A DNA stretch of 64,000 nt from Malacoraja senta (taxonomy: Eukaryota). Each line of letters starts with the position of its first letter. Within the stretch, counting starts at the first letter, position 1. Location: positions 10,976,001 through 11,040,000 of the forward strand of contig CM075988.1 in the NCBI GenBank assembly GCA_038087875.1. The letters run 5' to 3'. A program made the position numbers and the translations under genes. Positions 5,815 to 64,000 of this stretch are shown here, in pieces. The notes beneath the pieces were generated by a model that saw only the letters and a program-made list of their open reading frames with translations, made no database searches and had not been told where the DNA came from.

Positions 5815-6610
5815 AGGACTGACGAACATGCTGGAAACACTTGGCAGGTCAGGCAGCATCTGCGGAAAGAGACGATCGATGTTTTGAGGTTGAAGATCCT
5901 TGTTAGAACCAGGAAAGAGATAAGTCATTTTTTTAAGATGCAGGGATGGTGGGGAAGTTTAAATGGGAACAGAGTGCAGCTGTGATGAGCAGTTGAATGT
6001 ATCCAGTTGATAGGTGAATGAGTACAGTGAGAGATAATACAAACCAAGGAACAAAAATAGCTGAGAATAGAGGGCAGTAAGAAGGAGAGAGGTAAGAAAG
6101 AATAAATAAATGCAAAAACAATAAAATACAGAGCTATGGGAGGTGCCCAGTAGTTAATTGAAAGAGTAATACTGGACAAGTGGATGAATTGCAGCAGAAC
6201 TGACCATTCCGATACAGAGAAAAAGAATTGCCTGAATATCTTAAATTTAATGGAAGCTGGAAAATTTCAGACAGAAGGTGAGGCGATGTTCCTCAAGTTG
6301 GACTTTGTCAGAATAAATGAGATCACAGACTGGTTGGAATGGGACTATGATGGAGAATAATGTGGTGGGCAACAGGGAATTTGGGACAGCCCTGGTGGAT
6401 GGAATGTAGGTCACCCAAGGTCTCCAAAATGATCACTTAATATGTTTGATTTCTTCAGCATGAAAGAGCACCAAATGTGGTTGTGAACACGAACTTGAAG
6501 CATCAAGTGTGACACAGCCTCACTGAGGTGGTGGGGAATCAGTGGGTAAAAGGACTGGTGTTGCACGTCCTGAAGATGCATGGGGAAAGTACTATCAGTA
6601 TGTGGAATGA
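5815..6610 (-). mobile_element. Old, decayed Penelope-like element fragment
   Basis: Terminal-repeat motif atgctggaaacacttggcaggtcaggcagcatctg, then a purine-rich spacer, then weak similarity to the GIY-YIG region of the 13441 element (gttcctcaagtt.., tgttgcacgtcctgaagatgcatggggaaagtac). Confidence 0.6.
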
Positions 6611-6925: not shown

Positions 6926-7529
6926 AAATATCATCTTTCTTTCCCAGTGTTATGAAAGATCTTCAATCTTAAACACTATTTGTTTTCTTTCCACGGGTGC
7001 TGCCTGACTTGCTGAGCGTTTCCTGCATTTTCAATTTCCATTTCGGATGTCCAGCTCTGCATGTTTTATTTAATTGAAATACTGGAAGACAAACCCATCC
7101 AATAAGCAAAAAAAGACACAAAGTGCTGGAGTAACTCAACCGGACGGGCAACATCTCTGGAACATGCTGCCTGACCAGTTGAGTTACTCCATTACATTTT
7201 GTGTTTTTTCCAAACCAGCATCTGCAGTTCCTTTGGTTTGTTTATTTTCTCCCACAAACTGATTCACAATTTTATTTTTTGGTTTCTGTTACCTATAGTT
7301 TAAAACACATCTTTAAATAGTGCCTTTGCATCTGTGCTTTGAGAAATAAATAGAATGATCACAAGGGCAAAGGGAGCACAACCAATTTATTTCCAAGTTT
7401 ATGAGAACTTACGTTGGGTTGCTAATTTTGGACTCCATTGAAGAGTTGTGTTCTTCAAGGACATGGATGCAACTTCTCAAACTGACACAACTAGTTGGTT
7501 CCTACATTTTGTTCCTGAGGAACAGTGCT

Positions 7530-10256: not shown

Positions 10257-10790
10257 AACATAGAAACATAGAAACATAGAAAATAGGTGCAGGAGTAGGC
10301 CATTCGGCCCTTCGAGCCTGCACCGCCATTTGATATGATCATGGCTGATCATCCAACTCAGTATCCCATCCCTGCCTTCTCTCCATACCCCCTGATCCCT
10401 TTAGCCACAAGGGCCACATCTAACTCCCTCTTAAATATAGCCAATGAACTGGCCTCAACTACCTTCTGTGGCAGAGAATTCCAGAGATTCACCACTCTCT
10501 GTGTAAAAAATGATTTCCTCATCTCGGTCCTAAAAGTCTTCCCTCTTAAACTGTGACCCCTAGTTCTGGACTTCCCCAACATCGGGAATAGTCTTCCTGC
10601 ATCTAGCCTATCCAACCCCTTAAGAATTTTGTAAGTTTCTATAAGATCCCCCTCAGTCTTCTGAATTCCAACATGTACAAGCCAAGTCTATCCAGTCTTT
10701 CCTCATGTGAAAGTCCTGCCATCCCAGGAATCAGTCTGGTGAACCTTCTCTGTACTCCCTCTATGGCAAGAATGTCTTTCCCCAGATTCC
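10257..10790 (-). mobile_element. Young CR1 3' fragment, same subfamily as 43509-45207
   Basis: (catagaaa)n tail. ORF 10358-10615 ends FFTQRVVNLWNSLPQKVVEASSLAIFKRELDVALVAKGIRGYGEKAG. Near-identical to 43509-44045. Confidence 0.95.
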
Positions 10791-11297: not shown

Positions 11298-11980
11298 ATA
11301 TTGAGTATCGGCGTTGGGAGGTCATGTTGCAGTTGTATAAGATGTTGGTAAGGCCGCATTTAGAGTTTTGAGTTCAGTTCTGGGCACCATGTTGTTGGGA
11401 AAGATGTTGTCAAGCTGGAAAGATTACAGTGAAGATTTACGAGGATGTTGCAGGGACGAGAGGGTCTGACCTACAGGGAGAGGTTGATTAGGCTGGGTCT
11501 CTATTCCTTGGTGGACAAGGGGATGAGGGGTGATTTTATAGGGGGTGTATAAAATCATGAGAGGAATAGATCGGGTGGATGTACCAGATTAGGTGAATTG
11601 CAGCCCAGAGGATGTAGGTTTAAGGTGAAGGAGAAAAGAATTAATAGGAATCTGAGGAGTAACTTTTTCACACAAAGGGTGGTGGGGGTATGGAACAAGC
11701 TGCAGGAGGAGCTAATTGAGGCAGGGACTACCCCAGCATTTACGAAACAGACAGGTACATGGATAGGACAGGTTTGGAGGGATATGGATCAAACGGGGGC
11801 AGGTGAGGCTAGTGTAGCTGGGACAATCTGAAGAAGGGTTTCGACCTGAAATGTTGCCTATTTCCTTCGCTCCATAGATGCTGCCTTACCCGCTGAGTTT
11901 TTTCTACCAGCAGCTGGGACATGTTGGCCGGTGTGGGCAAGTTGGTTCGAAGGGCCTGTTTCCACACTGTATCACTCTAT
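11298..11980 (+). mobile_element. CR1/HER1-type LINE 3' fragment
   Basis: ORF 11598-11831 reads NLRSNFFTQRVVGVWNKL. Ends in gaagggcctgtttccacactgtatcactctat, the tail shared with the V-SINEs. Confidence 0.9.
11826..11911 (+). mobile_element. 86-bp hammerhead-motif/Penelope-tail insertion inside the CR1 tail
   Basis: Exact 10-bp flanking repeat AGCTGGGACA (11816-11825 / 11912-11921). The insert starts 2 nt before CTGAAGA (11828) and has GAAA at 11848-11851. Confidence 0.85.
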
Positions 11981-13501
11981 AATAAAAAGATATACCTTAT
12001 CAGATTGTTGAAGTTGATATAAAAGTGGACACTACATTTATATACAATGTCAAAACTAAATTGCTGAACAGCATTTTTTCAGGTGTGCTGTTTGTCACTA
12101 TTTTAAAATCTAAAGTTACGAACCTGATTGGTACGACGCTCTCTGAGAAAAAGGTGTTGCAATTTTAGGATGTTTTATTATAATTGACTGATTATAGGCG
12201 CAAGTTTGCAAATATAAGGTTGCAAACTGGAACTTTAACTGCTGGACGCTGAGACACCAATCAGGCATTTGACATTATGCTGGCCCACTTGACCTGCCAT
12301 GAATATATGCGTTTATCACTTCTCATTCTTTTCCCAAATAATATGCATGGGTGAAAGAAAGACTTAAATAGGCAGGCAGTGGGTAGCATTTCTTGTCAGG
12401 TTGATATAATCTCTGCTTTTCCTGTTCCCACAATGCTTTTCTAGGATTTGTTGCTGAAGATTTAAAATGTATGTGAAGAGGATAAACATAGTCCAGCTGC
12501 GACCAGCGTTAGTTAATGTTGAGACTCTGGGTTCGCAAGTAAAAAATTAATTAGCAACATTTCCATGGCTTCTCCCATATTCCCAAAGGTTGGAAAGCTG
12601 CTGACAGTATGGCGGAAAAGATGGATGGTTGGGTTATTTGTGGAGAAGACAATTATTGCAGATTTTAAAAAAATAAACAAAATGCTGGAGTAACTCAGCT
12701 GGTCAGGCAGCATCCCTGGAGAACATGGATATTGCAGATTAAGCATCGTCTAAGCATATCCATTGCTCTAATAATATTTAAGCAGGTTAACTTGGCAAAT
12801 ATTACAGTTTTGAAGTTTATAATCGGCTGACAGGATTGTCATTGCCACCTTTTAGAACAGCTTTCTTCTGGCTATCATTTCACTTTCTAAAAGATAAGAA
12901 TGTAATTAAATTCAACAATTACCTATTTGTTTGCATCTCCCAAAATGATAGATTATCATAAGCCCCACTGTTGGCAGTAAGGAACTCGAGCAATGTAAAT
13001 TGAAGTTATTTTGTCCTTGGTTACCAATATGAAAGTTCGATTTGTTTAGAATAATTAAAAATGCTGAACATTGCTTTGGTTGTTTGATTACATCAGGCAA
13101 TTGAAAGCAGTTTGAAGAAGAGACCTGACCTGAAATGTCATCTATCCATCCCCCCCCACACAGATGCCATCTGACTTGCTGAGTTACTCCAGCACTTTGC
13201 GTCTTGCTCAAGATTCCAGCATCTGCAGTTCCCCATGTCTCAATTGAAGATAATATACTGAGATTTGCAAAGTTCATAGACTAGGTATAAATTCATGTAT
13301 TACACCTGTATGTATGGACAAATGAAGCACTGTAAAAGACAACATTTCAAATGTTCCATCTTTTCTGGAGAAGACTTTGTTCAGGTCGGAAGGACTCGCC
13401 AGTGATCAGGCCTTCCATCCAGATGATCAAATCTCACATGGTACACAAAAATGCTGGAGAAACTCAGCGGGTGCAGCAGCATCTATGGAGCGAAGGAAAT
13501 A

Positions 13502-13535
13502 GGTAACGTTTCGGGCCGAAACCCTTCTTCAGACT
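13502..13535 (-). ncRNA. Minimal type-I hammerhead ribozyme motif in the Penelope 3' terminal repeat
   Basis: Minus strand reads agtCUGAAGA-A-GGGU(UUCG)GCCC-GAAA-CGUU-acc. It lies in the same sense as the PLE ORF and downstream of it. Confidence 0.8.
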
Positions 13536-13648
13536 GATAGGGGGTGGGGAGAAGAAAGGAAAAAAGGAAAAGGAGGAGGAGGAGCCCGAGGGTTGGGGGA
13601 GGGGAGGAGACAACCAGATGGCTGATGAAGGGGAGGGGACAGCCAGGG

Positions 13649-14818
13649 CTAGCAGAATTGGGAGAATTCAACGTTCAGGCCACCAGGGTGTAGACTGCCC
13701 AAGCGGAATATGAGGTGCATTTCCTCCAATTTACGGTGTTGCTCGCTGTGGCCATGGAGGAGACCCAGGACAGAGAGGTCAGATACGGAATGGGAGGGGG
13801 AGTTGAAGTGCTGAGCCACCGGGAGTTCAGGTTGGTTATTGCGGACCGACCGGAGGTGTTCGGCGAAACGATCGCCAAGCCTCCGCTTGGTCTCACCGAT
13901 GTAGATCAGCTGGCATCTAGAGCAGCGAATGCAATAGATGAGGTTGGAGGAGATGCAGGTGAACCTCTGTCGCACCTGGAACGACTGCTTGGGTCCTGGA
14001 ATGGAGTGGAGGGGGGAAGTGAAGGGACAAGTGTTGCATCTCTTGCGGTTGCAAGGGAAAGTACCAGGGGAGGGGGTGGTATGGGAGGGAAGGGAAGAAT
14101 TGACAAGGGAGTTACGGAGGGAGCGGTCTTTGCGGAAGGCAGACATAGGGGGAGATGGGAAGATGTGGCGAGTGGTGGGGTCACGTTGGAGGTGGCGAAA
14201 CTGACGGAGGATCACTTGTTGTATGTGACGGCTGGTGGGGTGAAAGGTGAGGACTAGGGGGACTCTGCCTTTGTTGTGAGTGGGGGGATGGGGAGAGAGA
14301 GCAGTGTTGCGGGGTATGGCAGAGACCCTGGTGCGAGCCTCATCTATGGTGGAGGAGGGGAACCCCCGTTCCCTGAAGAATGAGGACATTTCAGATGCCC
14401 TGGTGTGGAACGCCTCATCCTGGGAGCAGATGCGGCGTAGACGGAGGAATTGGGAGTGGGGGATGGAGTCCTTACAGGAAGCAGGGTGGGAAGAAGTGTA
14501 GTCCAGATAGCCATGGGAGTCGGTAGGTTTGTAGTGGATGTCGGTAAGGAGTCTATCACCTGCGATGGAGATAGTGAGGTCAAGGAATGGTAGGGAAGTG
14601 TCGGAAATGGTCCAGGTGTATTTAAGTGCCGGATGGAAGTTGGTGGTGAAGCGGATGAAGTCAGTCAGTTGTGTGTGGGTGCAGGATGTGGCACCAAAAC
14701 AATCATCGATGTAGCGGAGGTAGAGGTCGGGGATGGGGCCCTGGTACGCATTGAACAGGGATTGTTCTACGTACCCGACAAAGAGGCAGGCGTAGCTGGG
14801 GCCCATGCGTGTGCCCAT
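13649..14818 (-). CDS. Penelope-like reverse transcriptase (C-terminal part) + GIY-YIG endonuclease, partial
   Basis: MGTRMGPSYACLFVG, YLRYIDD, LPFLD, Cys linker CNRKRCNTC, and GIY-YIG LIYCIRCSRCQLIYIGETKRRLGDRFAEH. The frame stays open upstream to the truncation point (..NNFSFDSSHFLQIQGVA). Confidence 0.92.
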   Translation of the reverse strand: MGTRMGPSYACLFVGYVEQSLFNAYQGPIPDLYLRYIDDCFGATSCTHTQLTDFIRFTTNFHPALKYTWTISDTSLPFLDLTISIAGDRLLTDIHYKPTDSHGYLDYTSSHPASCKDSIPHSQFLRLRRICSQDEAFHTRASEMSSFFRERGFPSSTIDEARTRVSAIPRNTALSPHPPTHNKGRVPLVLTFHPTSRHIQQVILRQFRHLQRDPTTRHIFPSPPMSAFRKDRSLRNSLVNSSLPSHTTPSPGTFPCNRKRCNTCPFTSPLHSIPGPKQSFQVRQRFTCISSNLIYCIRCSRCQLIYIGETKRRLGDRFAEHLRSVRNNQPELPVAQHFNSPSHSVSDLSVLGLLHGHSEQHRKLEEMHLIFRLGSLHPGGLNVEFSQFC

Positions 14819-15270
14819 AGCTACGCCTTGTATTTGGAGGAAATGGGAGGAGTCGAATGAAAAGTTATTAAGTGTAAGTACCAGCTCCGCTAGGCGGAGG
14901 AGGGTGTCAGTGGCCGGGTATAGATTGCTTCTCCGGTCTCACATGATGTTCAATGACATGAGCTGTGCCAAGCTCAGCCAAGTTATGCCATCAAAAGATA
15001 AAAGCTGAGGAAAGTCTCAGCAAAGGGGAAATGATTTCATTCTGGATGGCTGGACATACGTGCAGGGATATAATTATCAGTGTTCGGAAGAATGGATGAA
15101 CTGCCAGTTTCCTCTCAAACATTAGTTTGATGTCTCTGCACCATCTGTTCCAGCCTATATATCCACTCAGCCATCCACTCTGGTTTATTGTGACGTACTG
15201 CAATCATTATTTACAGATGATGTACAAGGTTTACTTTCTGCATAAAATACTCGGATATCAACTAAGATCA

Positions 15271-17168: not shown

Positions 17169-17417
17169 ACTGCTCTATTTAATGTTCAGTCATGGCCATA
17201 TTGATGGTTGGGGCAGGACTGAGGACTTTAAAGGTCCCATTTTTATCTGATCTTATGGCTGTGGAATCGGAGGCCCACAGCTCTGGGTGTTCATCCAATA
17301 ATTTAGCCAAAACATAACTGTACCCATGGCATCCACCATCCTTTCAAATAATGTGCTGTATTAAAATTCATTGTCTTGAATCATTATCCAATCTTGACAA
17401 TTACTTAATCATCATTC

Positions 17418-18130
17418 ATAGATACATAGACAATAGGTGCAGGAGTAGGCCATTTGACCCTTCGAGCCAGCTCCGCCATTCAATGTAACCATGGCTGATT
17501 ATCCACAAACAGTACCCCGTTCCTGCCTCCCCCCCCCCACCTCCTCCATAACCCTTGATTCTGCTAGCCCCAAGAGCTCCATCTAACTCTCTTTTGAATG
17601 CATCAAGTGAATCGGCCTCCACTGCCTTCTGAGGCAGAGAATTCCACAAATTCACAACTTTTTTTTTTCTCATCTCAGTTTTAAATGGCCTACCCATTAT
17701 GCTTAAACTGTGGCCCCTGGTTCTGGACTCTCCCAACATCGGGAACATGTTTCCTGCATCTAGCATGTGCAATCCTTTAATAATTTTATATTTTTCCATA
17801 AGATATCCTCTCATCCTCAATTCCAGTGAATACAAGCCCAGTCGTTCCATTCTTTCATCATATGACAGTCCCGCCATCCCAGGAATTAACCTCGTGAACC
17901 TACACTGCACTCTCTCAGTAGCAAGAATGTCCTTCCTCAAATTAGGAGACCAAAACTGCACACAACACTCCAGGTGTGGTCTCACCAGGGCCCTGTACAA
18001 CTGCAGAAGCACCCCTTTGCTCCTATACTCAACTCCTCTCATTATGAAGCCAACATGCCATTAGCTTTCTTCACTGCCTGTTTTACCTGAATGCTTACTT
18101 TCAGTGACTGATGTACAAGGACACCCTTGC
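17418..18130 (-). mobile_element. CR1 3' fragment
   Basis: ORF 17416-18042 reads VLLQLYRALVRPHLECCVQFWSP..NLWNSLPQKAVEA. Confidence 0.93.
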
Positions 18131-19404
18131 ATCTCCTTAAATACTTGATGAAAGAGCAGCAAATAGAAATGGTGATGCAACATCACAACTTGTAGACATG
18201 AGAAACTGCAGAGCTAGAATCTTGAGCAAAACACACATTGCTGGAGAAGCTCAACGGATCAGTCAGTTGAGAAAAATGGACAGACTATGTTTCAGGTTGG
18301 GTCCCTTCTGCAGACTGAAGAAGAGCCCTGTACTTTATTTATCCTATACTTTCCCACCTGTAGAGTGTATCCAACAATTTCTGTATTTTCTTTCAATTAT
18401 AAATTAGCAATAAAAATAGAAAAATCTTGGATCTGAAATGTTGACTGTTTCTCTTACTGTGGATGCTGCCTTATTTATTGAGTGTTTCCAGCATTTTCTC
18501 TTATTTCAGAATTCCTGCACATTCAGTTTTTTTTTAATTAAAAAAAAAAATCCAGTCTTTGATATCCTTGCTAATATCCTGGATGTTTCCTTTGATTTTT
18601 CATCTGCTGCTATGCCCACTCTTGAAATTGACCTTCCAATGTTGATGCTTAAATTAAGCTTTCCTTGAAATGATGGTGACATTTTTATATTCAGTTGAGT
18701 TCGCTGTCATGTACTTGTATTGCTGTGAAGTTGGTCAATACATTGTTTGATGCAATATCCTTTATCTTCACAAATAATATAAATTGGTTGATTCTTAAAA
18801 TGAAAACTTGTGTGCAAGTTTAAACATGACAGTTCTTTCACCAGTATTAAAATTGGCTTCCCATGGGATTATTGCATCAATATGTCTCAGGATTCTGTGA
18901 TATTGGATTCTACTATAATTGACATTTTTATCACTTCATGTTTACACCTTGGACTGAATAGAACTATCATAATGTCACTCCCATAAACAAAGTGAGATTC
19001 TGATCAAAGTAATGAGTCAGATTAGAATCCACAAAAAATATATTAAGTACATTTGAATAAATAGGCGCATCCAACTCGTCAAATGTTAATAAGTTTTGTT
19101 GTGCATAAATATCTCTAATACTTGACCTTGTTAATAATTTCTTCCCCAAAAATATTAACTACTTTTCACTTAAATTTCTAGGATGATTGGGTAAGGTGGT
19201 TAGTAACTTGCAACCTTATTGATATGATTGTAAACAGTTGTCTTTAGGTCTCCAGTCTTACCTTGCTGTCTGTTATTGACACAATCTCAGATCTTTCCCT
19301 CTGTTATTGGGAATTGTTTAGTCCAGCGACTGGTAGATGTGTTGTACTGAAATTCCACCACTGCCTCTCCACGTGTGTATTTGTCTTTGGGGGGATGAGG
19401 GGGA

Positions 19405-20998: not shown

Positions 20999-22129
20999 TA
21001 ATAGCGCACAGAATTCTAACCTTAAGTTTGTAATTGAATCCTTTATTTAACTCCAATGAATACGGTAATACTCGTCAATATTATATTGTGGATGGGGTGG
21101 GGGGGAGGGAGGGTGTTAAAACACATTAAAAGTTGGATTCAGGAACCTGTCCCTGGTTGAACAGAATCTATAGTGTGAATGGGCTGGGCCACATATATAA
21201 TTGTGCTTGTAGCTTTTTTTTAAAGTAATGAGTTGTTTTTTTGCTACAGCATTAGCCAGCTGTTGTTTCAACATTATTTTTGAACCTGCATGTGACTATA
21301 TATATTCTTGAATTTAGTAATGATTCCACAGGATTATGACGTACAAGTCAACACCTCTGATTTCCCTCTTCTAATTTGTACATATTATTGGGAAGTAAAA
21401 TTATCGTTAACTGTTCATGGGCAATTCTGGAACTTGATTCCGTGGTGTTGGTGTGAGCTGCTGTGGATATTAAAGTGTTTCCAGAGACTATTATTGGTGG
21501 GGTGAGGGATAATAAACTCTAAGAATCGACATATAGAGACCAGGTAGTTTTCAATGATATGATGAAAACAAATTCCGTGACTTCAGAACCTTGATGCTCG
21601 CCATCTCCAAAATTTTCTGGTGAGAAATTTTGGCTAAATATGTGGAATAGGTTTTATTATGTTTCATTATTTGACGGGTTTCATTATTCTTCTAAGCATA
21701 TGGCATTGAAAACCCCGAGCCAACTCAGTAAAGGACAAATCATCCAGGACTAAGGACTTATCTCAAGCAGTTCTTCACAAAGCTATGTCGGAGCAAATGG
21801 CTGATTTGTTTTTATTTAACTCTGATAATTAAAAACATGTTTTTTCATATATGTATTAAATTATTTTCTAATGTTGTGATAGGCATCTGACTTGTGCCAC
21901 AATCTCAGCTGGTAAAATTTGAAGTGAAAATATAAAAAGCTGTGCATGTTTAGCAGCCAGGCAGCATCTGTGGAGTGAAAAATGCAGTTATTGTTTCTGG
22001 TCAAAGTTAAATATTTTAAAGTACAGAGAAGGAGGAGGGGTGGAGAGAACGAGGAAATAATTTGATGGAGAGATCGAGAGAGGCAAGGGATGATATTGGT
22101 GGTGAAAGAATCATCTGTTCACAGCATGC

Positions 22130-35488: not shown

Positions 35489-36037
35489 AATAGACCATAG
35501 GTGCAGGAGTAGGCCATTTGGCCCTTCGAGCCAGCACTGCCATTCAATGTGATCATGGCTGATCATCCACAATCAGTACCCCGTTCCTGCCTTCTCCCCA
35601 TATCCCCTGACTCCACTATTTTTAAGAGCCCTATCTAGCTCTCTCTTGAAAGCATCCAGAGAACCTGCCCTCTGAGGCAGAGAATTCCACAGAATCCCCC
35701 CACCCTCTGTGATAAAAATAGTTTCCTTGTCTCCGTTCTAAATGGCTTACTCCTATTCTTAAACTGGTTCTGGACTCCCCCAACATCGGGAACATGTTTC
35801 CTGCCTCTAGCATGTCCAAGCCCTTAACAATCTTATATGTTTCAATGAGATACCCTCTCATCCTTCTAAACTCCAGAGTGTACAAGCCCAGCTGCTCCAT
35901 TCTCTCAGCATATGACAGTCCCGCCATCCCGGGAATTAACTTTGTATACCTACGCTGCACTCCCTCAATAGCAAGAATGTCCTTCCTCAAATTAGGGGAC
36001 CAAAACTGCACACAATACTCCAGGTGTGGTCTCACTG
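35489..36037 (-). mobile_element. CR1 3' fragment
   Basis: ORF 35631-36116 contains VRPHLEYCVQFWSPNLRKDILAIEGVQRR. Confidence 0.92.
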
Positions 36038-36196
36038 GATCACGATCTGGATCATTTTCATGATGCATTAGCTGTAAGATGTAGTCACCTCCTTTAACCC
36101 TTTTGGAGACTTGCACACCACATGCAGTATCTCCTCACAATAATATTGTGATTTGGTATCCAATGCAGATTGAAAAAAAGCCATTCATCTTGTCAA

Positions 36197-40240: not shown

Positions 40241-41732
40241 AACTTTGCATTCACTGGGGGAAACCCCCCCATTATTCTCCTGTGTAACATGTGAGAAAAT
40301 AGTAAGTTAAATGTGGGTGGGAGCTTTGGGGAAAAAAAAATATATAAATAGGAAAATCTAATTGTCCATCACCACCAGAGATCTGAGCATGCTGCATTAC
40401 TGTAAACTACCATTAACATGAGAACCATGGTTAGGTACATCAGCTGTTCGAGTTGACGCCTCCATTTACTGGACTTGAAGCTTATCTACGCTTCACAGTT
40501 CAGTTTCAGTCAGTTTAGTTTATTGTCACGTGTGCCGAGGTACAGTGAAAAGCTTTTGTTGTGTGCTAACCAGTCAGCGGAAAAACAATACATGATTACA
40601 ATCGAACCATTTACAGTGTATAGATACATGATCAGGGAATAACATTAAGTGCAAAGTAAAGCCTGATCAAAGGTAGTCCGAGGGTCACTAATGAGGTGGA
40701 TAGTAGTTCAGGACTGCTTTCTAGTTTAGCCTCTTTATTTCCTTCATGCCAAACCTAACAAAGACTGTCTCTCTCGGTCCTGAAAGCTACAATTATTATG
40801 AGGACTATGAACATTTAACTGCAGATTTGGTTTAGTTCCATGGTTCAGAAGTACATATTAATTAACATGGATGAAAGCCTTTTATTCTAGCTATCAAAAT
40901 CAAGACTATATTAAAACATACAGCAGACGAATCAGCACTTGAAAAGCAAAATGAGTTGTCCTATCCGCCAACACCTTCAGCAATGATGTTAGTTTTAATT
41001 CCGGCAGTTGGGTGTCGACAGTAAACAGTCTTTATTATATTTTTCAGGATGTTGACCTCTGAACTTTCATCCAAGCTGGTTTTGATATTTCCAGCAGGCT
41101 TTGATATCTCCAGCATTTGCAGATTCTCTCTTGCTGTTTTGGGCATATTTCAGACACTGTTAAAGTTCAGTGGTTAAGAGGTTTAGTGAAACGCCACGGG
41201 AGCATTTCCTCTGTATGCGGGTTGTAGCTAAACTGTAAACCTCTTTGTTCTAAATAGCTCTGCAGTTTCACTTTGAGCATCACTCAGAAGAAATCTATTT
41301 CCATTGTGCACTGAAAGCATGCACTCTTCAGTGACACTGGATGAAAGACTGCAAAGGGGACAATGACAGGGTCATAATGTCCAAGTCTTCTGTGATGGGT
41401 ATAAGAGCAGCATCTTTCATAGCATAGGAGTCTAAAGTGGATGAATGTTCACCAGGTTACTGACATTATTAATTGTTCACTTTGTTCACTGGACAAACTT
41501 TCTCTGCTGAATGATGTCACTGCTGAAAATAAAATACCTTTTATCAAGAAGAAATGTTACCATTCTTGAGATTCTCTTTAAAGTCTTTTGAAGTGTGTTG
41601 TCATTATCATTACTTCGTGTGCCTTTTCTGGACTTCAAACAAGCTCATAAGTGCCAGGATAATGGACTATAAACATATATTGTTGTTCAAATGAAACGCA
41701 ACTTTTTCAGTTCAAAACCTTCACTGTAAAAT

Positions 41733-42820
41733 CTCCATCGCAGGTGATAGACTACTGACCGACATCTACTATAAATCCACTGACTCCCATGACTATCTGG
41801 ACTACACTTCTTCCCACCCTGCTTCCTGTAAGGACTCCATCCCCTACTCCCAATTTCTCGGTCTACGCCTCATCTGCACCCAGGATGAGGTGTTCCACAC
41901 CAGGGCATAGGAGATGTCCTCATTCTGCAGGGAATTGGTGTTCCCCACTTCTACTATAGATGAGGCTCTCACCAGGGTCTCTTCTATACCACGTAACTCT
42001 GCTCTCACTCCCCATCCCCCCCACTCGTAACAAAGGCAGAGTCCCCCTTGTCCTCACCTTCCACCCTACCAGCCATCACATACAACAAATAATCCTCCAA
42101 CATTTTCGCCACCTCCAACGGGATCCCACCACTGGCCACATCTTCCCATCTCCTCTCTGCTTTCTGCAGAGACCACCCCCTCCGTAACTCCCTGGTCAAT
42201 TTGTCCCTTCCCACCCAAACCACCCCCTCTCCTGGCACTTTCCCTTGCAACTGCAGGAAATGCTATACTTGTCGCTTTACCTCCCCCCTTGACTCCATTC
42301 AAGGACCCAAGCAGTCTTTCCAGGTGTGGCAGAGGTTCACCTGCACCTCCTCCAACCTCATCCATCGCAGCTGCTCTACATCGGTGAGACTAAGCAGAGG
42401 CTTGGCGATTGCTTCCCCCAACACCTCCACTCGGTTTGCAATAACCAACTTGATCTCGGGGTGGCTCAGCACTTCAACTCTCCCTCCCATTTCAAATCCG
42501 ACCTTTCTGTCCTGGGCCTCCTCCATGGCCAGAGTGAGGCCCACCGTAAATTGGAGGAGCAGCACCTCATATTTCGCTTGGGCAGTGTGCACCCTAGTGG
42601 TATGAACATTGACTTCTCTAATTTCAGGTAGTCTCTGCTTTCTCCTACCTGTCCCAGCTCTCCCTCCGCCCACTGTCTCCGCCTCTTCCTTTCCTCTTCC
42701 CGCCCCCCCCCCCACCCTCACATCAGTCTGAAGAAGGGTCTCGACCCGAAACCTCGCCTATTTCCTTCGCTCCATAGATGCTGCCTCACCCGCTGAGTTT
42801 CTCCAGCATTTTTGTCTACC
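41733..42820 (+). mobile_element. Penelope-like element, 5'-truncated, with frameshifts
   Basis: Homologous to 13441-14936 (RNKGRVPLVLTFHPTS, YIGETKQRLGD, KLEEQHLIFRLG). Flanking repeat GTAAAAT (41726-41732 / 42821-42827). Hammerhead core at 42728-42755. Confidence 0.92.
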
Positions 42821-43109
42821 GTAAAATTTGTAGCGCCTTGTAAAGATTTATAGCTTCTGCATGCGGATACAAAGAACTGCAGATACTGGATTACAAAAAA
42901 AGAGACAAAGTGCCAGAGTAATTCAATGGGTCATGCATCATCTCTGGAGAACATGAATAGGTGATGTTTCACATCAGAAGCATCCCACCAAAAACATCAC
43001 CTATCCATGTACTCCAGAGATGTTGTTTAACCCATGAGTTATTCTTGCACTTTGCAGCTAGAGAACTGTTTATTGTGATCAGAAGTATTTTTTGTAATTT
43101 GAACTAGTT

Positions 43110-43508: not shown

Positions 43509-45207
43509 AGAAACATAGAAACATAGAAATTAGGTGCAGGAGTAGGCCATTCGGCCCTTCGAGCCTGCACCGCCATTCAATATGGTCATGGCTGATCATC
43601 CAACTCAGTATCCCGTACCTGCCTTCTCTCCATACCCTCTGATCCCTTTAGCCACAAGGGCCACATCTAGCTCCCTCTTAAATATAGCCAATGAACTGGC
43701 CTCGACTACCCTCTGTGGCAGAGAGTTCCAGAGATTCACCACTCTCTGTGTGAAAAAAGTTCTTCTCATCTCGGTTTTAAAGGATTTCCCCCTTATCCTT
43801 AAGCTGTGACCCCTTGTCCTGGACTTCCCCAACATCGGGAGCAATCTTCCTGCATCTAGCCTGTCCAACCCCTTAAGAATTTTGTAAGTTTCTATAAGAT
43901 CCCCTCTCAATCTCCTAAATTCTAGTGAGTATAAACCAAGTCTATCCAGTCTTTCTTCATAAGACAGTCCTGACATCCCAGGAATCAGTCTGGTGAACCT
44001 TCTCTGCACTCCCTCTATGGCAATAATGTCCTTCCTCAGATTTGGAGACCAAAACTGTACGCAATACTCCAGGTGTGGTCTCACCAAGACCCTGTACAAC
44101 TGCAGTAGAACCTCCCTGCTCCTATACTCAAATCCTTTTGCTATGAAAGCTAACATACCATTCGCTTTCTTCACTGCCTGCTGCACCTGCATGCCTACTT
44201 TCAATGACTGGTGTACCATGACACCCAGGTCTCGCTGCATCTCCCCTTTTCCTAGTCGGCCACCATTTAGAAAATAGTCTGCTTTCCTGTTTTTGCCACC
44301 AAAATGGATAACCTCACATTTATCCACATTATACTGCATCTGCCAAACATTTGCCCACTCACCCAGCCTATCCAAGTCACCTTGCAGTCTCCTAGCATCC
44401 TCCTCACAGCTAACACTGCCCCCCAGCTTAGTGTCATCCGCAAACTTGGAGATATTGCCTTCAATTCCCTCATCCAGGTCATTAATATATATTGTAAATA
44501 GCTGGGGTCCCAGCACTGAGCCTTGCGGTACCCCACTAGTCACTGCCTGCCATTGTGAAAAGGACCCGTTTACTCCTACTCTTTGCTTCCTGTTTGCCAG
44601 CCAGTTCTCTATCCACATCAATACTGAACCCCCAATGCCATGTGCTTTAAGTTTGTATACTAATCTCTTATGTGGGACCTTGTCGAAAGCCTTCTGGAAG
44701 TCCAGATACACCACATCCACTGGTTCTCCCCTATCCACGCTACTAGTTACATCCTCGAAAAATTCTATAAGATTCGTCAGACATGATTTACCTTTCGTAA
44801 ATCCATGCTGACTTTGTCCAATGATTTCACCACTTTCCAAATGTGCTGCTATCCCATCTTTAATAACCGACTCTAGCAGTTTCCCCACTACCGATGTTAG
44901 ACTAACTGGTCTGTAATTCCCCGTTTTCTCTCTCCCTCCCTTCTTAAAAAGTGGGGTTACGTTTGCTACCCGCCAATCCTCAGGAACTACTCCAGAATCT
45001 AAAGAATTTTGAAAGATTATTACTAATGCATCCACTATTTCTGGAGCTACTTCCTTAAGTACTCTGGGATGCAGCCTATCTGGCCCTGGGGATTTATCGG
45101 CCTTTAATCCATTCAATTTACCCAACACCACTTCCCGACTAACCTGGATTTCACTCAATTCCTCCAACTCCTTTGACCCGCGGTCCCCTGCTATTTCCGG
45201 CAGATTA
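43509..45207 (-). mobile_element. Young 5'-truncated CR1 LINE with an open RT frame
   Basis: (catagaaa)n 3' tail at 43509-43529. The frame is stop-free through GNYRPVSLTS, YLDFQKAFDK, GVPQGSVLGP, KFADD and the C-terminus. Confidence 0.97.
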
Positions 45208-45461
45208 TATATAAAGAACACATTCATATGGAAGGGTCTTGAACAGAAACGTTGACTTCCATTGTCTTCCACAGATGCTGACTGACCCATTGAATTCCCA
45301 TAGCATAGACGCAAAATGCTGGAGTAACTCAGCGGGACAGGCAGCGTCTCTGGAGAGAAGGAATGGTTGACTTTTCGGGTCGAGACATTTCTTCCAACCC
45401 AAAACGTCACCCATTCCTTCTCTCCAGAGATGCTTCCTGTCCCGCTGAGATACTCCAGCAT
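43605..45461 (-). CDS. CR1 ORF2 reverse transcriptase without endonuclease; the N-terminal ~85 codons are non-CR1 flank
   Basis: 618-aa ORF. CR1 similarity starts at about NLPEIAGDRG (~45207). Confidence 0.8.
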   Translation of the reverse strand: MLEYLSGTGSISGEKEWVTFWVGRNVSTRKVNHSFSPETLPVPLSYSSILRLCYGNSMGQSASVEDNGSQRFCSRPFHMNVFFIYNLPEIAGDRGSKELEELSEIQVSREVVLGKLNGLKADKSPGPDRLHPRVLKEVAPEIVDALVIIFQNSLDSGVVPEDWRVANVTPLFKKGGREKTGNYRPVSLTSVVGKLLESVIKDGIAAHLESGEIIGQSQHGFTKGKSCLTNLIEFFEDVTSSVDRGEPVDVVYLDFQKAFDKVPHKRLVYKLKAHGIGGSVLMWIENWLANRKQRVGVNGSFSQWQAVTSGVPQGSVLGPQLFTIYINDLDEGIEGNISKFADDTKLGGSVSCEEDARRLQGDLDRLGEWANVWQMQYNVDKCEVIHFGGKNRKADYFLNGGRLGKGEMQRDLGVMVHQSLKVGMQVQQAVKKANGMLAFIAKGFEYRSREVLLQLYRVLVRPHLEYCVQFWSPNLRKDIIAIEGVQRRFTRLIPGMSGLSYEERLDRLGLYSLEFRRLRGDLIETYKILKGLDRLDAGRLLPMLGKSRTRGHSLRIRGKSFKTEMRRTFFTQRVVNLWNSLPQRVVEASSLAIFKRELDVALVAKGIRGYGEKAGTGY

Positions 45462-46155
45462 TTTGTGTCAATCTCAGATTCAGATTCAGATTCAACTTTA
45501 TTGTCATTGTGCAGTGTACAGTACAGAGACAACGAAATGCAGTTAGCATCTCCCTAGAAGAGCGACATAAATATGAGCAGTAAATATATAAATCTAATAA
45601 TCCTGGTGGGAGGATTGTCCGGGGGGGGGGTGGGGGGGGGGGGTGATTGGCAGTCACCGAGATACAGTGTTGAGTAGTGTAACCGCCGCAGGGAAGAAGC
45701 TGTTCCTGGACCTGCTGGTCCGGCAACGGAGAGACCTGTAGTGCCTCCCGGATGGTAGGAGGGTAAACAGTCTGTGGTTGGGGTGAGAGCAGTCCTTGGC
45801 GATGCTGAGCGCCCTTCGCAGACATCACTTGCTTTGGACAGACTCAATGGTGGGGAGTGAGGAACCGGTGATGCGTTGGGCAATTTTCACCACCCTCTGC
45901 AGTGCTTTCCGGTCGGAGACAGAGCAGTTGCCATAACATACTGTGATGCAGTTGGTAAGGATGCTCTCGATGGTGCAGCGGTAGAAGTTCACCAGAATCT
46001 GAGGAGACAGATGGACCTTCTTTAGTCTCCTCAGGAAGAAGAGACGCTGGTGAGCCTTCTTGACCAGAGTTGAGGTATTGTTGGTCCAAGAGAGGTCATC
46101 GGAGATGCTGGTTCAATCTTTGATTGAAACCAGCATCTGCAGTTCCTTCCTACAC
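45306..46155. mobile_element. Penelope-derived hairpin element split by a Rex1/Babar insertion
   Basis: Hairpin at 45306-45470, with its tail resuming at 46120-46155. Degenerate flanking repeat gaattcccatagca / gaattcctcgagca. Confidence 0.75.
45475..46112 (-). mobile_element. Rex1/Babar-clade LINE 3' fragment
   Basis: Minus strand translates ISDDLSWTNNTSTLVKKAHQRLFFLRRLKK..FYRCTIESILTNCITV..RKALQRVVK..NSFFPAAVTLLN. (TGAATC)n tail. Flanking repeat TCAATCT (45468-45474 / 46113-46119). Confidence 0.9.
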
Positions 46156-48109
46156 AGAATTCCTCGAGCAGTCTGTTTTTTGCTCAGACTCCAGCATCTA
46201 CAGCTTGTGTCTTCCTATCTGGCTTGTTTGTGCTCTATATGAATAATATTTCATTTAATCTGGTGCTAAGTCCATGCAAAGGTCCTTTGAGTTAAGCTTG
46301 TTTCCAGTTAGTGCTAAAGAAAACAGTGACCAACGATCCAGTTTTACCATTGTGCACTCTTGCGAAAATTCATCTTGAGAAACAATGCAATTAGCTTTGT
46401 ATCATGCACCCTCACATGATCCATGATGAGAAGTATTATTATTTTAATTGCTTTCATAGGTGTCCTAATTTTCTAACTTTCTGCTAGATTCTGGTAGACC
46501 TTGGAAGTCTGATTTTTTTTTTTCCACAGCGGATTATCATATTGATTTTTGTTTTTTTGCAAGCGTGGTTTTTGTTTACATGAGTATGAACTGACTTGGA
46601 GAAACAGATGCTGAGGTCTCACTTACTTCCGCAGTGTGCTTTAATTCACAACATGCAAGTATCATTGATGATGAAAACATTTTCAGTTCAATCCCTCAAT
46701 TTCCTTAAGGAGGTGACGGTGAATCATCTTCTGGAACAGTTGAAACACAAGTCACAGAGTCCACAGAAGAGAAACAGGCTCTTCAGCCCAAACTGCCCAC
46801 ACCGACCAACATGTCCCATCTAAACTAGTCCCACCTACCCGCTTTTGGCCCATATCCATCTCGCCCTGTCCTATCCATGTACCTGTCTAAATGTCTTAAA
46901 TGTTGCGATGATACCTTTCTCAACTACCTCCTCCGGCAGCTTGTTCCATACACCCACCACCCTATGTGTGTAAAAAAAAAAGGTACCCCTTAGGCTGTTT
47001 AGCCCAGGTCAAGTACTTCTGAATGCTACTTTCATCCATCAATGATGAAAGAACGACAATATATTCTCAAGTCCAGGTGCCGTGTGGCTTGGAGAATATG
47101 AACGTTGTTGTGTTTCATGTTTAATTGCCCGTGTTATTTTAGATGATCATGGCCACAAATTAGGGAGTTAGCAGGTTACTGCATTTTGCAGATGGTGCTC
47201 ATTAAGTCTACTGCACTGCAATTTTGTAGTGTCACAATCAGGAAGACTGCTTGGTCCTTGGAGTGTTGTTGAAGATGCAGTTGTTCAGACAAGTGGAGAG
47301 AATTCCATTACAATCCTCCAATAAGCGTGGTGGCAAGATTAACAAACACAAGGTGTTAAAAGTAGACCATGGTCGACCTGTGTCGGAATGTTTTATATTT
47401 CTCGTCATTGTTTCTTCTCCCCCTTCTGTGGTGGGGTAGACTGAGACTGACCCACACCCCTCCCCCCACCACCCTCTCCCCACCCCCTCCCTCCTCCCCA
47501 ATCTTTGCACATCCCCAATCCTTTCCACCCATCACTTTAATTTCATGTTTCATGTATTTTGTGTTTTTTATGACTGGGATAAATAAAGTTCTATCGTATT
47601 GTTCTTTCATTTTCTCATGTTAGTTTATTCCAGTTCTCAAAAATACTATCCATCGCATTTCTCCACTCGTTCGCTCGTGTGTCAGATGATGTAGCTCGCT
47701 GTTGGCTTCTGTCGTTGTCCAACATGTTGACAGAATTGGTCACCCGACCTGTCACAGAGTGCATCGTGTCGTCGTTTCCGGGGATCGCCACGAGGAGGCT
47801 TCTGTCATGATCCCCATTTCTCCACTTATTTCCCGTAACCTGCTTCACTTGCCTGCACATCAATTCTTGATTCTTCCACAAATCTTTTAGGACGTAGGAG
47901 GAAATCGGAGCATCCCAGGGTAAAACCTGTGCCGTCAGAGAGAGAATGCGCAAACTCGGATAGTACTGATGATCAGGATCCAACTTGGGTCAGTGGCGCT
48001 GTGAGGGAACGTCACTGCCATCTGCAACACTGCTCTGCACAATGGCACTTAACTACATGTGGTCCTGGTTTTTGTTACATTCAGGCAGAGACTGTGTCAT
48101 GATCTGGTT

Positions 48110-56794: not shown

Positions 56795-57752
56795 TTGGTT
56801 GTTTATTATTATTGTCACCTGTACTGCGATACAGTGAAAAGCTTTTGTTTCTGTGCTATCCAGTCAAAAAAGGACAATACATGAATGCAATAAAGCCGCC
56901 CACAGTGCAAAGATAGAGGATAAAGAGTACAACATTTAGTGCATAGATATAACATTAATTAAAGAAAGTTCAAAGGTCTCCAATGATGTAGATTGGAGGT
57001 CAGCACCACACTCGAGCTGATGAGAGGACTGTTCAGTTGCCTGATCACAGCAGGGAAGAAATTGTTCCTGAATCTGCAGGTATGTTTTCATACTTCTGTG
57101 TATCTCCTACCTGATGGGATAGGGGAGAAGAGGGAGTGACCAGAGTGAGACTTGTCCTTGATAATGCTGGCAAGTTTTCTGAGGCAACGAAGTGTAGATG
57201 GAGTTGATGGAAGGGAGTTTGGTTTGTGTAGTGGTCTGTGCTATGGAGGTTAGTGATCTCCCTGTGGCTCAACACTTCAACTCCCCCTCCCATTCCTTTC
57301 TGTCCTGGGCCTCCTCCATGGCCAAAGTGAGCACCACCGGAAATTGGAGGAGCAGCACCTCATATTCCGCTTGGGCAGTCTGCACCCCACCAGCTAGAAC
57401 ATTGACTTCTCCAATTTCCGGTAGCTCTTGCTGTCTCCTCCCTTTCTCAGCTCTCCCTCAGCCCTCTGGCTCCTCATCTTCCTTTCTTCTTCCCACCCCC
57501 CCCACCCTGCATCAGTCTGAAGAAGGGTTTCGGCCCAAAACGTTGCCTATTTCCTTCGCTCCATAGATGCTGTCGCACCCGCTGAGTTTCTCCAGCATTT
57601 TTGTCTACCATGCATCTGAATACGATGCTTTCTCTGGCGCATTTGTAGAAGTTGGATGAGAGTTGTTGGAGACATGCCAAACTTCCTAAGTCTTCCAAGG
57701 AAGTAGAGGTGTTGGTGTGCTTTCTTCACCATAGTGTTAATATAGTTTGACA
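56795..57752 (-). mobile_element. Rex1/Babar-like fragment with a nested plus-strand Penelope 3' fragment (~57248-57610)
   Basis: Minus ORF 57547-57822 reads MVKKAHQHLYFLGRLRKFGMSP. The insert has DLPVAQHFNSPSH and a terminal repeat with CTGAAGA at 57517. Confidence 0.8.
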
Positions 57753-57769: not shown

Positions 57770-59300
57770 GATTTATTATTGTTATGCCTACCAAGATGGA
57801 ATGCAAAATTTTCATTTTGCATGCTATCCAGGTAAATTATTCATTCTGATTGCAGTCAAACTATGCAGAATATATTGTTGCAACTATAAAGCAAGTGCAT
57901 GTGAAAGGAAAAGTCCAAGTGCCGCAGTGAAGTAGACTTGGGAATTCATCCTTGGCGCATGAGTTGAGTTCAAAGGTCTGATAACAGCAGGAAAAGAGCT
58001 GTTCTTGAAACTGGTGCTGTTTTCAAACCTTTGTATCTTCTGCTGGATGGGAGAGGGGAGAAGAAAGAATGCCCATGGTGTGAACAGTCTTTGATTATTT
58101 TTGTTGTTTTCTTGAGGGAGCCTGAAGTATAGATGAAGTCATCAGGAAGGAGGCTGGTTTGATGATGAACTGAGCTATATCCACAACTCTATAGTTTCTG
58201 GCAGTCTTGGACAGAGCAGTTGCCATACCAATCTATGATGCATCTCTATAGGATGCTTTCTGTGGTGCATCTGTAAAAATTGGCAAGAGTCATTGGAGGG
58301 GTTTGTGTTCTTTCCAGGCCTTAGTGTCCATGTATTTGGTCCGGGGCAAATTGTTGGTGATGCTCACACCTCAGAGCTTGAAACTCTAAATCATCTCCAC
58401 CTCTGCACCAGTGATGCAACTAGGAGATAGACTCCACCCTACTTTCTGAAATCATGGAAGAAGGGTCTCGACCAGAAACGTCACCCATTCCTTCTCTCTG
58501 GCGGTACTGCCTGTCCCGCTGAGTTACTCCAGCTTTTTGTGTTATCTTCAAGTTCTTCTTTCTTGCTAACATCCAGGGAGAGTTTGTTGCCTCCGTCCTG
58601 TACTCTGTCCCTGTACATGGTTTGAGATCCGGCTCTTTACAGTGGTGTCTTTTTCACACAGAGAGTTGTGAGTCTGTGGAATTTTCTGCCTCAGAGGGCA
58701 GTGGAGACCAGTTATCTGGATACTTTCAAGAGAGAGCTTGATAGGGCTCTTAAAGACAGCAGAGTCAGGGGATATGGGGAGAAGGCAGCAATGGGGTACT
58801 GATTGTGGACGATCAGACATGATCACATTGAATGGCAGTGCTGGCTCGAAGGGCCGAATGACCTACTCCTGCACCTATTGTCTATTGTCACCTGCAAACT
58901 TATAAATGGAAGATAGACACAAAAAGCTGGATTAAGTTAGGAGAGAAGGAATCTGAAGAAGGGTCTCGACCCGAAACGTCACCCATTCCTTCTCATCAGA
59001 GATGCTGCCTGGCCCACTGAGTTACTCCAGCTTTTTAAACCAGCATCTGCAATTCCTTCCTACACACCCTATAAATCGAGTTGGCTGTATCGTCGTTAGT
59101 GTGCAGAGAGTAAGGCAAGGGGCTGAGAACACAGCGTTACAGGGCATCTGTGTTGGGTATTATTGTGGAGGCTGTTTTGTTGCTTATCCTTAATGATTGT
59201 GATCTATGGACCAGGAAGTCAAGGATATAATTGCAGAGGGGGTTGCAGTGTTCTGCATCCAGGAGTTTTAAGATGTATTTTGATTTAAATCTATGTTGAA
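57770..59300 (-). mobile_element. Rex1/Babar-like LINE fragment carrying three later insertions
   Basis: Minus strand reads CVLSPLPYSLHTND..SIYKFAGD across 58886-59150. Inserts are a Penelope half-repeat (~58456-58550), a plus-strand CR1 tail (~58640-58888) and a hairpin element (~58911-59066). Confidence 0.7.
58953..58983 (+). ncRNA. Minimal type-I hammerhead ribozyme motif, most canonical copy in the window
   Basis: CUGAAGA(58953-58959)-A-GGGU(CUCG)ACCC-GAAA(58973-58976)-C-GUC(58978-58980). Predicted cleavage is after C58980. Confidence 0.8.
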
Positions 59301-61385: not shown

Positions 61386-61424
61386 AAACCAATTGATACG
61401 TTTAATAGGGAAGGTTTCCGACTG

Positions 61425-61587: not shown

Positions 61588-61604
61588 TAAGGTTTCCAAC
61601 TGTT

Positions 61605-61836
61605 AAAGAAGGAACTGCAGATGCTGGAAAATCGAAGGTACACAAAAATGCTGGAGAAACTCAGCGGGTGCAGCAGCATCTATGGAGCGAAGGAAATAGG
61701 TAACGTTTCGGGCCGAAACCCTTCTTCAACCCTTCCCTTCAGTTTGAAGAAGGGTTTCGACCCGAAACGTTACCTATTTCCTTCGCTCCATAGATGCTGC
61801 TGCACCCGCTGAGTTTCTCCAGCATTTTTGTGTACC
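61605..61836. mobile_element. Very young Penelope-derived hairpin element
   Basis: 94-bp inverted arms (61636-61729 / 61744-61837, 1 mismatch). Exact 17-bp flanking repeat TAAGGTTTCCAACTGTT (61588-61604 / 61837-61853). Confidence 0.92.
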
Positions 61837-64000
61837 TAAGGTTTCCAACTGTTTGGCTTGGATAAGTCTGGGTGAATAGCATGTTTCCTGCTGTATGTAT
61901 GGATTCTATGCCTGTGGTGGCTGGAGGTCAGTTATCCCAGCTCGAGAAAAGCACTTGGAGTTCTTCGGGGCAATGTCCTCTTCCTAATTATCTTAATTTG
62001 TGGCCTGCCAAAAACCTACAGGTAAAATATAAAATCATTGAATGCAGCAAAAGTCTTGTATCTCCCTCAAACTAATTTTACCTTTTTGAAATATTTGACT
62101 TAAACTTGATTAATATTTAATCAAACATAACAGTGGAGTAAAATGATTACTTTCTGTTTGATTGCAAGGACGATTGATGGTAACGGTGAACAGAATTCAT
62201 CAGGAAAGATTTAATATCAAAGTACATCTTTTTTTCCTTGGGTAACTTTACCTTTCTTGGTACAAATTGTCACTGCAGTTTGGATTGGTGCAGTGAAGGA
62301 ACATCATGTACCATAATTACGTTGATTAAGGCAGATCTGTCATGCTTAAGTACGGTGATAGTTTTACTGTTTTAAGACCACAGAAAATTGCACATACAGC
62401 CAATGACCGATGGTCTGTTGGGAGTTGTCAGTATCTCAGCAGAAACCGATTTGATGAACTTGCGGTGACTTTGCAGTATTAACAAAGCTGAGCTGACTCT
62501 TTGAAGTGAGAAAAGGGACCAACTGAGCTCTGCATTCCGTATCCCACTAGGTCATGCATGCAACTGATAGCAACACAGAACGCTGCCCTTTACGAACTTT
62601 ATACATATTTCCTTTGGGCAGCTTATAACCCTGTGGGCTTGATTTCTCTGATTTCAAGTAACCACTGTATTCCCCCTCCGCCCCTCTCTGCCCCTCCCCC
62701 CACCCTAGTAGTCCTACTAGTTCTCATCCATATAACCCTTCGTTATCACCTCTTCCACAGCCAGCTATGGACCATTGTGGGCTCTACCTTTCCTTGGTCA
62801 TCGGTGCCGCCTCTGAACATGCAAACTCTGCGCAGACAGTACTGGTGATCAGGATCGAACCCAGGTCTCTGGTGCTGAGAGGCAGCAGCTCGACTAACTG
62901 CTCCATTGGTCCTCAAGGTTGGTTGGCCATTGGCAGATGTGCCGAGATAGTTTTGTTTTATGCACTATCCATTCAAGCTATACCGTACAATCGAGGAATA
63001 CACGTTCAACAGGCAGAGCAAAGTGAAAAATAACCAGTGTAGAATGTAGTGCTGCACCATTACTGTGTTACAGAGAAAGGGAAGTTAAGAAAAACCTGCA
63101 AGGGCTGCAATAAGGTTGGTTCATGGGCAACCTTGTATGCATTCATGGTCACCATCTCCTTGTGTACCACATACTTGCTGGTCATTTCAATCTATCATCT
63201 TCACCATGTTGTTCCTAATCCTTGGTTCTCCCACAATCTTCCCACAGCAGCTTCACGCCAAAGCTCTCAGCCAATACAATGTCTGTAGATGCTTTGGTTT
63301 TGTGACTTACCAATTCAAGGAGGTGAAGAACTGCTCCCAGTCAGGTGTTTGTGCTGAAAATGGTCACCTCTCGAGTAAAGTACAGTGGTTGTACTTTCAA
63401 CATGCTGAGGTCATGATGATGGACATAATTCATATAGGTACCCTGTTACTTTATAGAGAGCAGAAATTAATTACTATAGTCTTATTTGCACTTCACTTGC
63501 TCGAAGAAGCCTTGAGAATGCAATCAATAAAGGGCGGAACAAAATTACAGTCTCCTTATTGAACTGCTTGTTGTCGATGGCATTTAGCAATTTCCGTTCC
63601 TCATTTGGATCCATAACTGTTGCCCAAAACAAGTCGGGGAGCCAATTAACACAATTCTCAATCGAATGCAACATTTAATGTTTGCATAAGCTGTGTCTTG
63701 TCGCAAGAAATATATACAGTTCATCTCTGCATCATTTAGGAATGGCTTTTAGATGAAAGCAAAACCGCCTTCGTGCTCCTTACATCTATTTCATTTAATT
63801 CAATTTTAAGAATGCTATTGTGCTTCAACTTTGAAGCAATCAGGTGCCTGGTTATCGGCAGCTCCCAGCACATTTATTTTGGCAGCGTTGCATCTTTTTT
63901 CACACTGCTCCTGTTTAACTTGGAATTGATGCTGCTTTTTTCAGTTTGCATACTCATTCCTTGGCACGGTGTGATTCATAGGGAATCCTTCATAGTTTTG

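Follow-up and report, generated by a model that had tools for sequence, protein, structure and literature searches.

A minimal type I hammerhead ribozyme (HHR) core lies in the pLTR of a Neptune-type Penelope-like element (PLE) at 13505..13532, on the minus strand of a 64,000-nucleotide stretch of Malacoraja senta DNA (GCA_038087875.1, contig CM075988.1; hereafter the window). The motif is a hammerhead by ancestry and anatomy, with self-cleavage predicted from its sequence, and the ends of the many insertions of this end repeat speak for uncut RNA as the template for copying. This focal copy is the only intact ribozyme in its native context in the window, and it sits behind an open RT/EN frame.

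Read on the minus strand from 13532 to 13505, the 28-nt motif consists of CUGAAGA, A, GGGU, UUCG, GCCC, GAAA, CGU and U, and was recognized both with a motif descriptor and by comparison with the published consensus. C3 falls at 13532 and H17 at 13505, where the initial annotation had placed the hammerhead. The segment from C3 to A9 (13532-13526) is followed by a bulged A (13525), a 4-bp stem II (13524-13521 with 13516-13513) capped by the UUCG loop, G12 to A15.1 (13512-13509) and the palindrome ACGU (13509-13506), to which stem III is indeed cut down, as had been proposed, in the focal copy and the majority. The GUU triplet ends at 13505, with the predicted cut between 13505 and 13504, and the remaining pLTR extends ~64 nt beyond it (13441..13504), the focal copy ending without the optional tail. 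Against C3-U4-G5-A6-N7-G8-A9, G12-A13-A14-A15.1 and U16.1-H17, this copy has no core changes. The extra A after A9, which was said to be tolerated in natural hammerheads such as that of CChMVd, is part of the consensus in PMC4209133, and the CChMVd case is confirmed by a review (PMC3705267).

A descriptor free of stem I matched the window 6 times, and 5 of these matches are family copies; 200 dinucleotide shuffles gave 0.12 matches on average and 2 at most. The Rfam hammerhead models, named at the outset beside the descriptor as a means of recognizing the motif, had no match in the window or in 13400-13700, even at E<=10, presumably because stems I and III are nearly absent. The exact 28-mer pattern was found in 0 stretches of the viral contigs and in 0 of the prokaryote genomes.

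The focal HHR begins 116 nt past the stop of an open frame (13649..14938, minus strand) that is truncated at its 5' end and encodes 429 aa: a C-terminal RT (YIDD), the linker CX4CX2C and a GIY-YIG domain in which CCHH is present; the match to the GIY-YIG domain (E=4e-4) was below the cut-off. The frame has 145 longer relatives (identity up to 55%), and in a comparison of 5 sequences the CCHH residues C339, C342, H361 and H377 are invariant, as are the linker cysteines C296, C301 and C304, which fit CX2-5CxxC. An RT followed by a C-terminal GIY-YIG with CCHH defines EN+ PLEs, and the CX2-5CxxC linker marks both Neptune and Nematis (PMC8557442), so that the linker motif does not separate the two; the tie to Neptune is indirect, through the HHR motif of an Acropora Neptune in related loci. 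The whole insertion (13441-14936) is bounded by TSDs of 9 bp at 13432-13440 and 14937-14945, and the family shows the EN+ PLE traits of 5' truncation, inverted pLTR, TSD and an optional 30-40 bp tail at one end. With RT, CX4CX2C and GIY-YIG upstream and all the consensus features of PMC4209133 in place, the assignment of the motif to a minimal type I HHR in a PLE pLTR held up.

An HMM search found 44 end-repeat copies in the window (23 on the plus and 21 on the minus strand; 7.4% of the window), where more than 10 had been claimed. All 11 sites named earlier are copies of the repeat, with the coordinate 61458 off by one base, and of the seven listed as the best copies two (13532 and 58953) match the full pattern and five do not: the ACGU palindrome is lost at 60919, 22179, 36313 and 42728, and the 11828 copy carries U-for-C changes. 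The core is unchanged in 8 of 21 complete-core copies; three of these also keep a 4-bp stem II and pairable 15.2/16.2, and among the three the native stem I is retained only at 13532. The bulged A between 9 and 10.1 is present in 22/22 window copies. The palindrome is often lost through CpG decay (C kept in 18/23 and G in 13/23 window copies), and within the window stem II has changed chiefly by wobble or CpG decay, two-sided changes being seen once at 35099 and once at 19729.

Individual insertions differ in age and form. A young head-to-head pLTR pair at 61588..61853, with arms 97-100% identical to the focal copy, is joined at the HHR and has a 17-bp TSD; its tail is on one arm only and C3U is found in both arms of this youngest inverted pair, so a C3U template was mobilised. 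A second ORF-bearing truncated copy, 82% identical (41731..42830, plus strand), has its HHR at 42728 with the palindrome broken. In the short inverted insertion at 58900..59075, the arm at 58953 (plus strand) has a perfect core and has lost the native 5' stem I strand. A solo short copy (11826..11911, plus strand; 10-bp TSD) starts ~2 nt before C3, and its target is what we take to be a CR1-type 3' end. The stretch 61411-61853 comprises two successive inverted Penelope inserts, and the young pair's 17-bp TSD is similar to the sequence flanking the older pair on the left, with 9 bp matching exactly, a shared flank word that suggests re-insertion at the same target. We also observed an odd palindrome, TCAG-T-CTGA, at the motif's 5' edge (13529-13537, 18309-18317, 51143-51151); two head-to-head junctions coincide with it, and it may give microhomology joining two cDNAs. 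An older, more divergent subfamily of the end repeat occurs at 5821-5901, 6954-7063, 18430-18522 and 21956-22004, its 6954 copy having a different stem II (AGAU/AUCU-like) and a decayed core.

Comparison with distant families bears on the ancestry of the motif. A search for relatives of the ORF yielded 80 distant loci, of which 36/80 have a descriptor match, including distant Neptune elements of ~40-53% protein identity to the window element. Their commonest motif, CUGACGA A GGGC UAAC GCUC GAAA CGUC at ~106 nt past the ORF, is the Acropora digitifera Neptune HHR of Fig. S3 in PMC4209133; since the distant matches nearly all belong to one family, they count as a single comparison. Between the window majority and this family, 11/11 core positions agree, with 5/8 in stem II, 0/4 in the loop and 13/40 in the 3' flank (ungapped), while N7 differs and the stem I pair 2.2-1.2 changes from G-C to C-G. 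Across 19 sequences (16 window copies and 3 distant loci) stem II is paired in 90.8% of cells, and the G10.1-C11.1 pair is G-C in 13/19 and G.U in 4/19. In the same sequences 79.7% of all cells pair, a figure inflated by relatedness, and lies above 500/500 shuffles and above slid controls of at most 52.6%. The excess conservation of the core over its flanks that a ribozyme reading had implied was found in 23 window copies (214/228 vs 996/1172 non-CpG cells; base-matched p=0.012), with some ascertainment, as the seed alignment included the core.

Stem I, which the initial annotation did not mention, is the weakest part of the anatomy. In the focal copy it has only 2 bp (13503..13534; G13534-U13533 with A13504-C13503), and in the family it reads U-A or U.G, then G-C, then an A.C mismatch; the third pair is unpaired in 13/19 sequences, pair 2.2-1.2 covaries with the distant loci, and ~60% of mapped reads have G at position 1.1 (13504), making the first pair U.G. 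Published helix I lengths are 2-6 bp, with 2 bp in D. virilis and Culex (PMC4209133). For the focal monomer, the predicted probabilities of stem I and stem II are ~0 and the purine-rich core pairs with neighbouring pyrimidine runs, whereas in the distant family the predicted probability of stem II is 0.94-0.99. The active dimer of the focal copy came to -6.5 vs -29.8 kcal/mol for the best dimer, and that of the distant-family control to -12.3 vs -29.7 for the minimum (secondary-structure energies, tertiary contacts ignored); as the active dimer lies far above the best one in both families, activity cannot be judged from these energies. Dimer cleavage of Penelope hammerheads has reportedly been treated by Lunse, Weinberg and Breaker (RNA Biol). 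According to PMC4209133, minimal HHRs show no activity as monomers and little as dimers.

Insert ends bear on what was copied. Numbered from C3, with the predicted cut at +28/+29, the cut site lies inside 35 of the 44 copies; of the other nine, one has its start at +25..+33, seven begin further downstream and one ends before reaching it. In 12 head-to-head pairs, 20/24 arms start from -9 to +21 of C3 and 0 at +27..+31; one further arm, which has an internal deletion, starts near +33 by eye. The 3' ends fall at ~+93 or at +123..+129, that is, ~65 or 100 nt beyond the cut, and in 8/12 pairs the alignment has one arm reaching +123..+129 and its partner stopping at +94 or before; of the remaining pairs, 3 have the tail motif on a single arm and 1 lacks it. 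Inverted pLTRs with a one-sided tail were already known (PMC8557442, PMC3846280).

Reads mapped to 13400-14300 came from 3 RNA runs from related species and one contig set, perhaps from the source of the window itself (4/24 runs). We found no pile-up of read starts or ends at the cut site, or at any other place in this region, in the 3 RNA runs, a weak test, as these runs went through poly(A)/oligo-dT selection, decayed copies overwhelm them and our pile-up rule requires a fifth of the local depth. X24 RNA depth was ~9,500 over the HHR, ~40 just upstream and 120-1,300 over the ORF, a profile in which short copies dominate and divergence of the upstream tract explains part of the drop. From 13440, 4661 X24 reads run on into the tail; loose ends mark the tail at that position as well as heterogeneous 5' junctions at 13534-13535 (1070 and 1445 X24 reads, respectively). 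The latter cannot be taken as a sign of splicing, because the DNA contigs have a similar share at 13534 (149 vs 166 at 13537). A 96-bp head-to-tail joint, from 13535 to 13440, was seen in 7 X24 reads and 2 X15 contigs and is possibly a retrozyme-like array elsewhere in those genomes. The initial annotation had held that self-cleavage defines the transcript ends. That view is not supported: insert ends avoid the cut site, the RNA runs lack a pile-up there (the weak test above), and the HHR of an anole element is dispensable in vitro (PMC11167929).

At its 5' edge the motif adjoins a candidate 3' splice site, a polypyrimidine tract (13534..13592, minus strand; 91% C/T) that ends in CAG directly before U2.1. 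All four ORF-attached copies examined (4/4) have such a tract (77-91% pyrimidine) and CAG directly before U2.1, with a GTAG donor-like site at the ORF end in 3/4. We observed candidate GT..AG introns at 42629-42727, 57421-57516 and 60920-61108 (99, 95 and 188 nt), which start within the last ORF codons and include the stop, so that their removal leaves the frame open into the HHR; in the 42728 copy the 99-nt candidate runs from the stop codon to U2.1. In D. virilis Penelope, the 3' end of a proven intron lies at 491, with C3 at 496 (PMC4209133, PMC2377424). From these sequence features we infer splicing at the 5' edge of the HHR. A donor-to-acceptor joint was absent among the RNA joints listed, and the reference copy lacks the donor. 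The idea that splicing would lengthen stem I was rejected, since CAG is likewise the end of the candidate 5' exon, and the predicted stem I probability is 0 in 3/3 copies; in the spliced form, the predicted stem II improves in 1/3 copies.

On the observed anatomy, conservation and insert ends, we favour a reading that we consider reasonably probable: the hammerhead is a family trait of a Neptune-type PLE, selected in the active lineage and conditional, and is not required for insertion; its cleavage is predicted, and its dependence on a dimer or a protein is our deduction. A lone HHR would misfold because stem I has 2 bp, stem III needs a partner and the purine core pairs with flanking pyrimidine runs. 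Cutting after GUU/GUC would take place only in a dimer of two pLTRs, probably helped by the element's protein, and would be slow or late and not set the ends of the RNA being copied. The RT would prime internally at two sites ~65 and 100 nt past the cut (the pLTR end and the tail end), pass through the uncut HHR and often halt at its 5' edge, and such stops would account for the numerous copies of 90-130 bp, solo or head to head, of which almost all would then decay neutrally.

Inserts that span the cut could alternatively come from cut, re-ligated circular RNA. In this scheme, proposed in PMC4209133, a read-through transcript would be cut by two pLTR HHRs into a unit RNA that is circularised and copied past the junction; cleavage would define the RNA ends, as the initial annotation had it, with re-ligation masking them in the inserts. 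Core conservation, which implies selection on catalysis, speaks for it, and so does the 96-bp joint of the X24 reads and X15 contigs; this tandem joint, however, sits at the pLTR ends and not at the cut, and exists in DNA. The lack of an RNA pile-up at the cut site counts against the scheme as far as that weak test goes, as do HHR mutants of the anole element, which still insert in vitro (PMC11167929), and most inserts stop at most 40 nt upstream of the cut, which run-off from cut RNA cannot do. We regard a circular template as unlikely.

It is distinctly unlikely that the HHR is catalytically dead in the window lineage, its sequence being kept for protein binding, as a splice acceptor, for coding in the next unit or by descent only. 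Against it, the subfamilies in the window conserve the catalytic positions more than the flanks, and motifs with a 2-bp helix I are published for D. virilis and Culex; a D. virilis construct with helix III extended cleaved at a low level (PMC4209133). Consistent with a dead ribozyme are the 2-bp stem I with its frequent U.G first pair, the C3U template mobilised in the youngest inverted pair and the proliferation of entire PLE clades that lack HHRs (PMC8557442). Chance resemblance within a repeated sequence would fit the missing Rfam hammerhead match, a fold z-score of 0.25 and the non-independence of copies of one repeat, but is highly improbable given that core and place are common to elements of ~40-53% protein identity, with covariation, and that every feature of the PMC4209133 consensus is matched.

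Extending the preferred reading of a conditional hammerhead, we tentatively put forward a more specific proposal, itself doubtful, in which the HHR would act as a switch that is normally off, fused to a 3' splice site where pLTR-initiated RNA has its 5' edge, and the abundant 90-130 bp HHR-headed inserts would be run-off cDNAs, internally primed on an uncut RNA template, whose head-to-head joining comes from priming at both of the nicked strands. If so, the short inserts would be a genome-wide record of in vivo PLE RT start and stop sites, uncut RNA would be the natural template, and strong splice acceptors would be scattered through the host genome.

A second ribozyme pattern in the window shows another arrangement. 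An HDV-like (CPEB3-type) ribozyme with a complete pattern (47815-47730, minus strand; P1 7 bp, P2 7 bp, P3, P1.1, P4, J4/2 cytosine) scored 34.7 bits with Rfam CPEB3 against a gathering threshold of 35 (E=1.8e-5), and the pattern occurred at 1 site in the window and at 0 in 10 shuffles. It heads a ~150-bp insert (within 47656-47826) that has a 12-bp TSD and its 5' end at G1; unlike the hammerhead copies of the window, this insert starts where cleavage is predicted. In all probability it derives from a LINE of RTE, Ingi or Vingi type, as a short non-autonomous form (PMC5786205). On shark HDV-like ribozymes, the only paper found concerned R2. Elsewhere, a 620-codon open frame at 43605-45467 (minus strand; RVT_1 E=2.6e-33) belongs to a LINE whose 5' side is interrupted by an inverted Penelope pair, and which is presumably CR1-type. 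Further fragments lie at 464-1516, 10358-10687, 17416-18060 and 35631-36134. The segment 54879-55900 is GC-rich (51%) and has ~90-bp internal repeats; each of its strands carries long open frames that overlap.

Motifs of this class have been published since 2014, so finding one here was expected: minimal HHRs (min-HHRs) were reported in fish Xena, Poseidon and Neptune, with thousands of copies in coelacanth and Xenopus (PMC4209133). We found no paper on the Neptune family of the window, although the text of Lunse et al. and the supplements of Li et al. might include it, and none of the motifs in Fig. S3 of PMC4209133 is named as coming from a cartilaginous fish. What this locus adds is a high-copy vertebrate Neptune family whose insert ends bear on the role of Penelope hammerheads. 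Like the metazoan PLE min-HHRs (Cervera and de la Pena 2014, PMC4209133), of which the nearest example listed is that of the Acropora digitifera Neptune, the window motif has CUGANGA, a bulge before G10.1, G10.1-C11.1 and GAAA-CGU-H, lies in a pLTR, and has a 4-bp stem II, a 4-nt loop and palindromic 15.2-16.2; unlike them, it has a stem I of 2 bp where 3-5 are usual. With Penelope of D. virilis (PMC4209133, PMC2377424) it shares the 2-bp helix I and the inverted pLTR with tail, and a 3' splice site adjoining helix I was shown there and is a candidate here; the D. virilis motif differs in a 2-nt palindromic insertion in helix III and in a longer, bulged stem II.

One chondrichthyan genome is reported to contain retrozymes (Li, Clavereau and Pollet 2026, bioRxiv 10.64898/2026.07.22.740005). 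The short copies of the window resemble such non-LTR retrozymes in carrying a type I HHR in short non-coding pLTR-related units; retrozymes, however, are tandem arrays with an HHR in each unit, whereas the window copies are solo or head-to-head with TSDs, and no head-to-tail neighbours occur among the 44. The closest functional parallel is PAc, the Poseidon of Anolis carolinensis (Frangieh et al. 2024, PMC11167929), the one PLE tested in vitro in this respect. There cleavage by the HHR requires protein, HHR mutants remain able to insert and the template is uncut RNA (in vitro); the RT initiates internally at both tail ends, and no RNA-seq ends fall at the cut (PMC11167929). The window element differs in that it has a Neptune/Nematis linker and is known from sequence, whereas PAc is of the Poseidon clade and had its activity tested. 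In both, the HHR lies in the pLTR, RNA ends at the cut were not seen, and two 3' end points bound a 30-40 nt tail downstream of the cut (PMC11167929), so that the insert ends described here agree with the in vitro work on this one lizard element, in which uncut RNA is copied.
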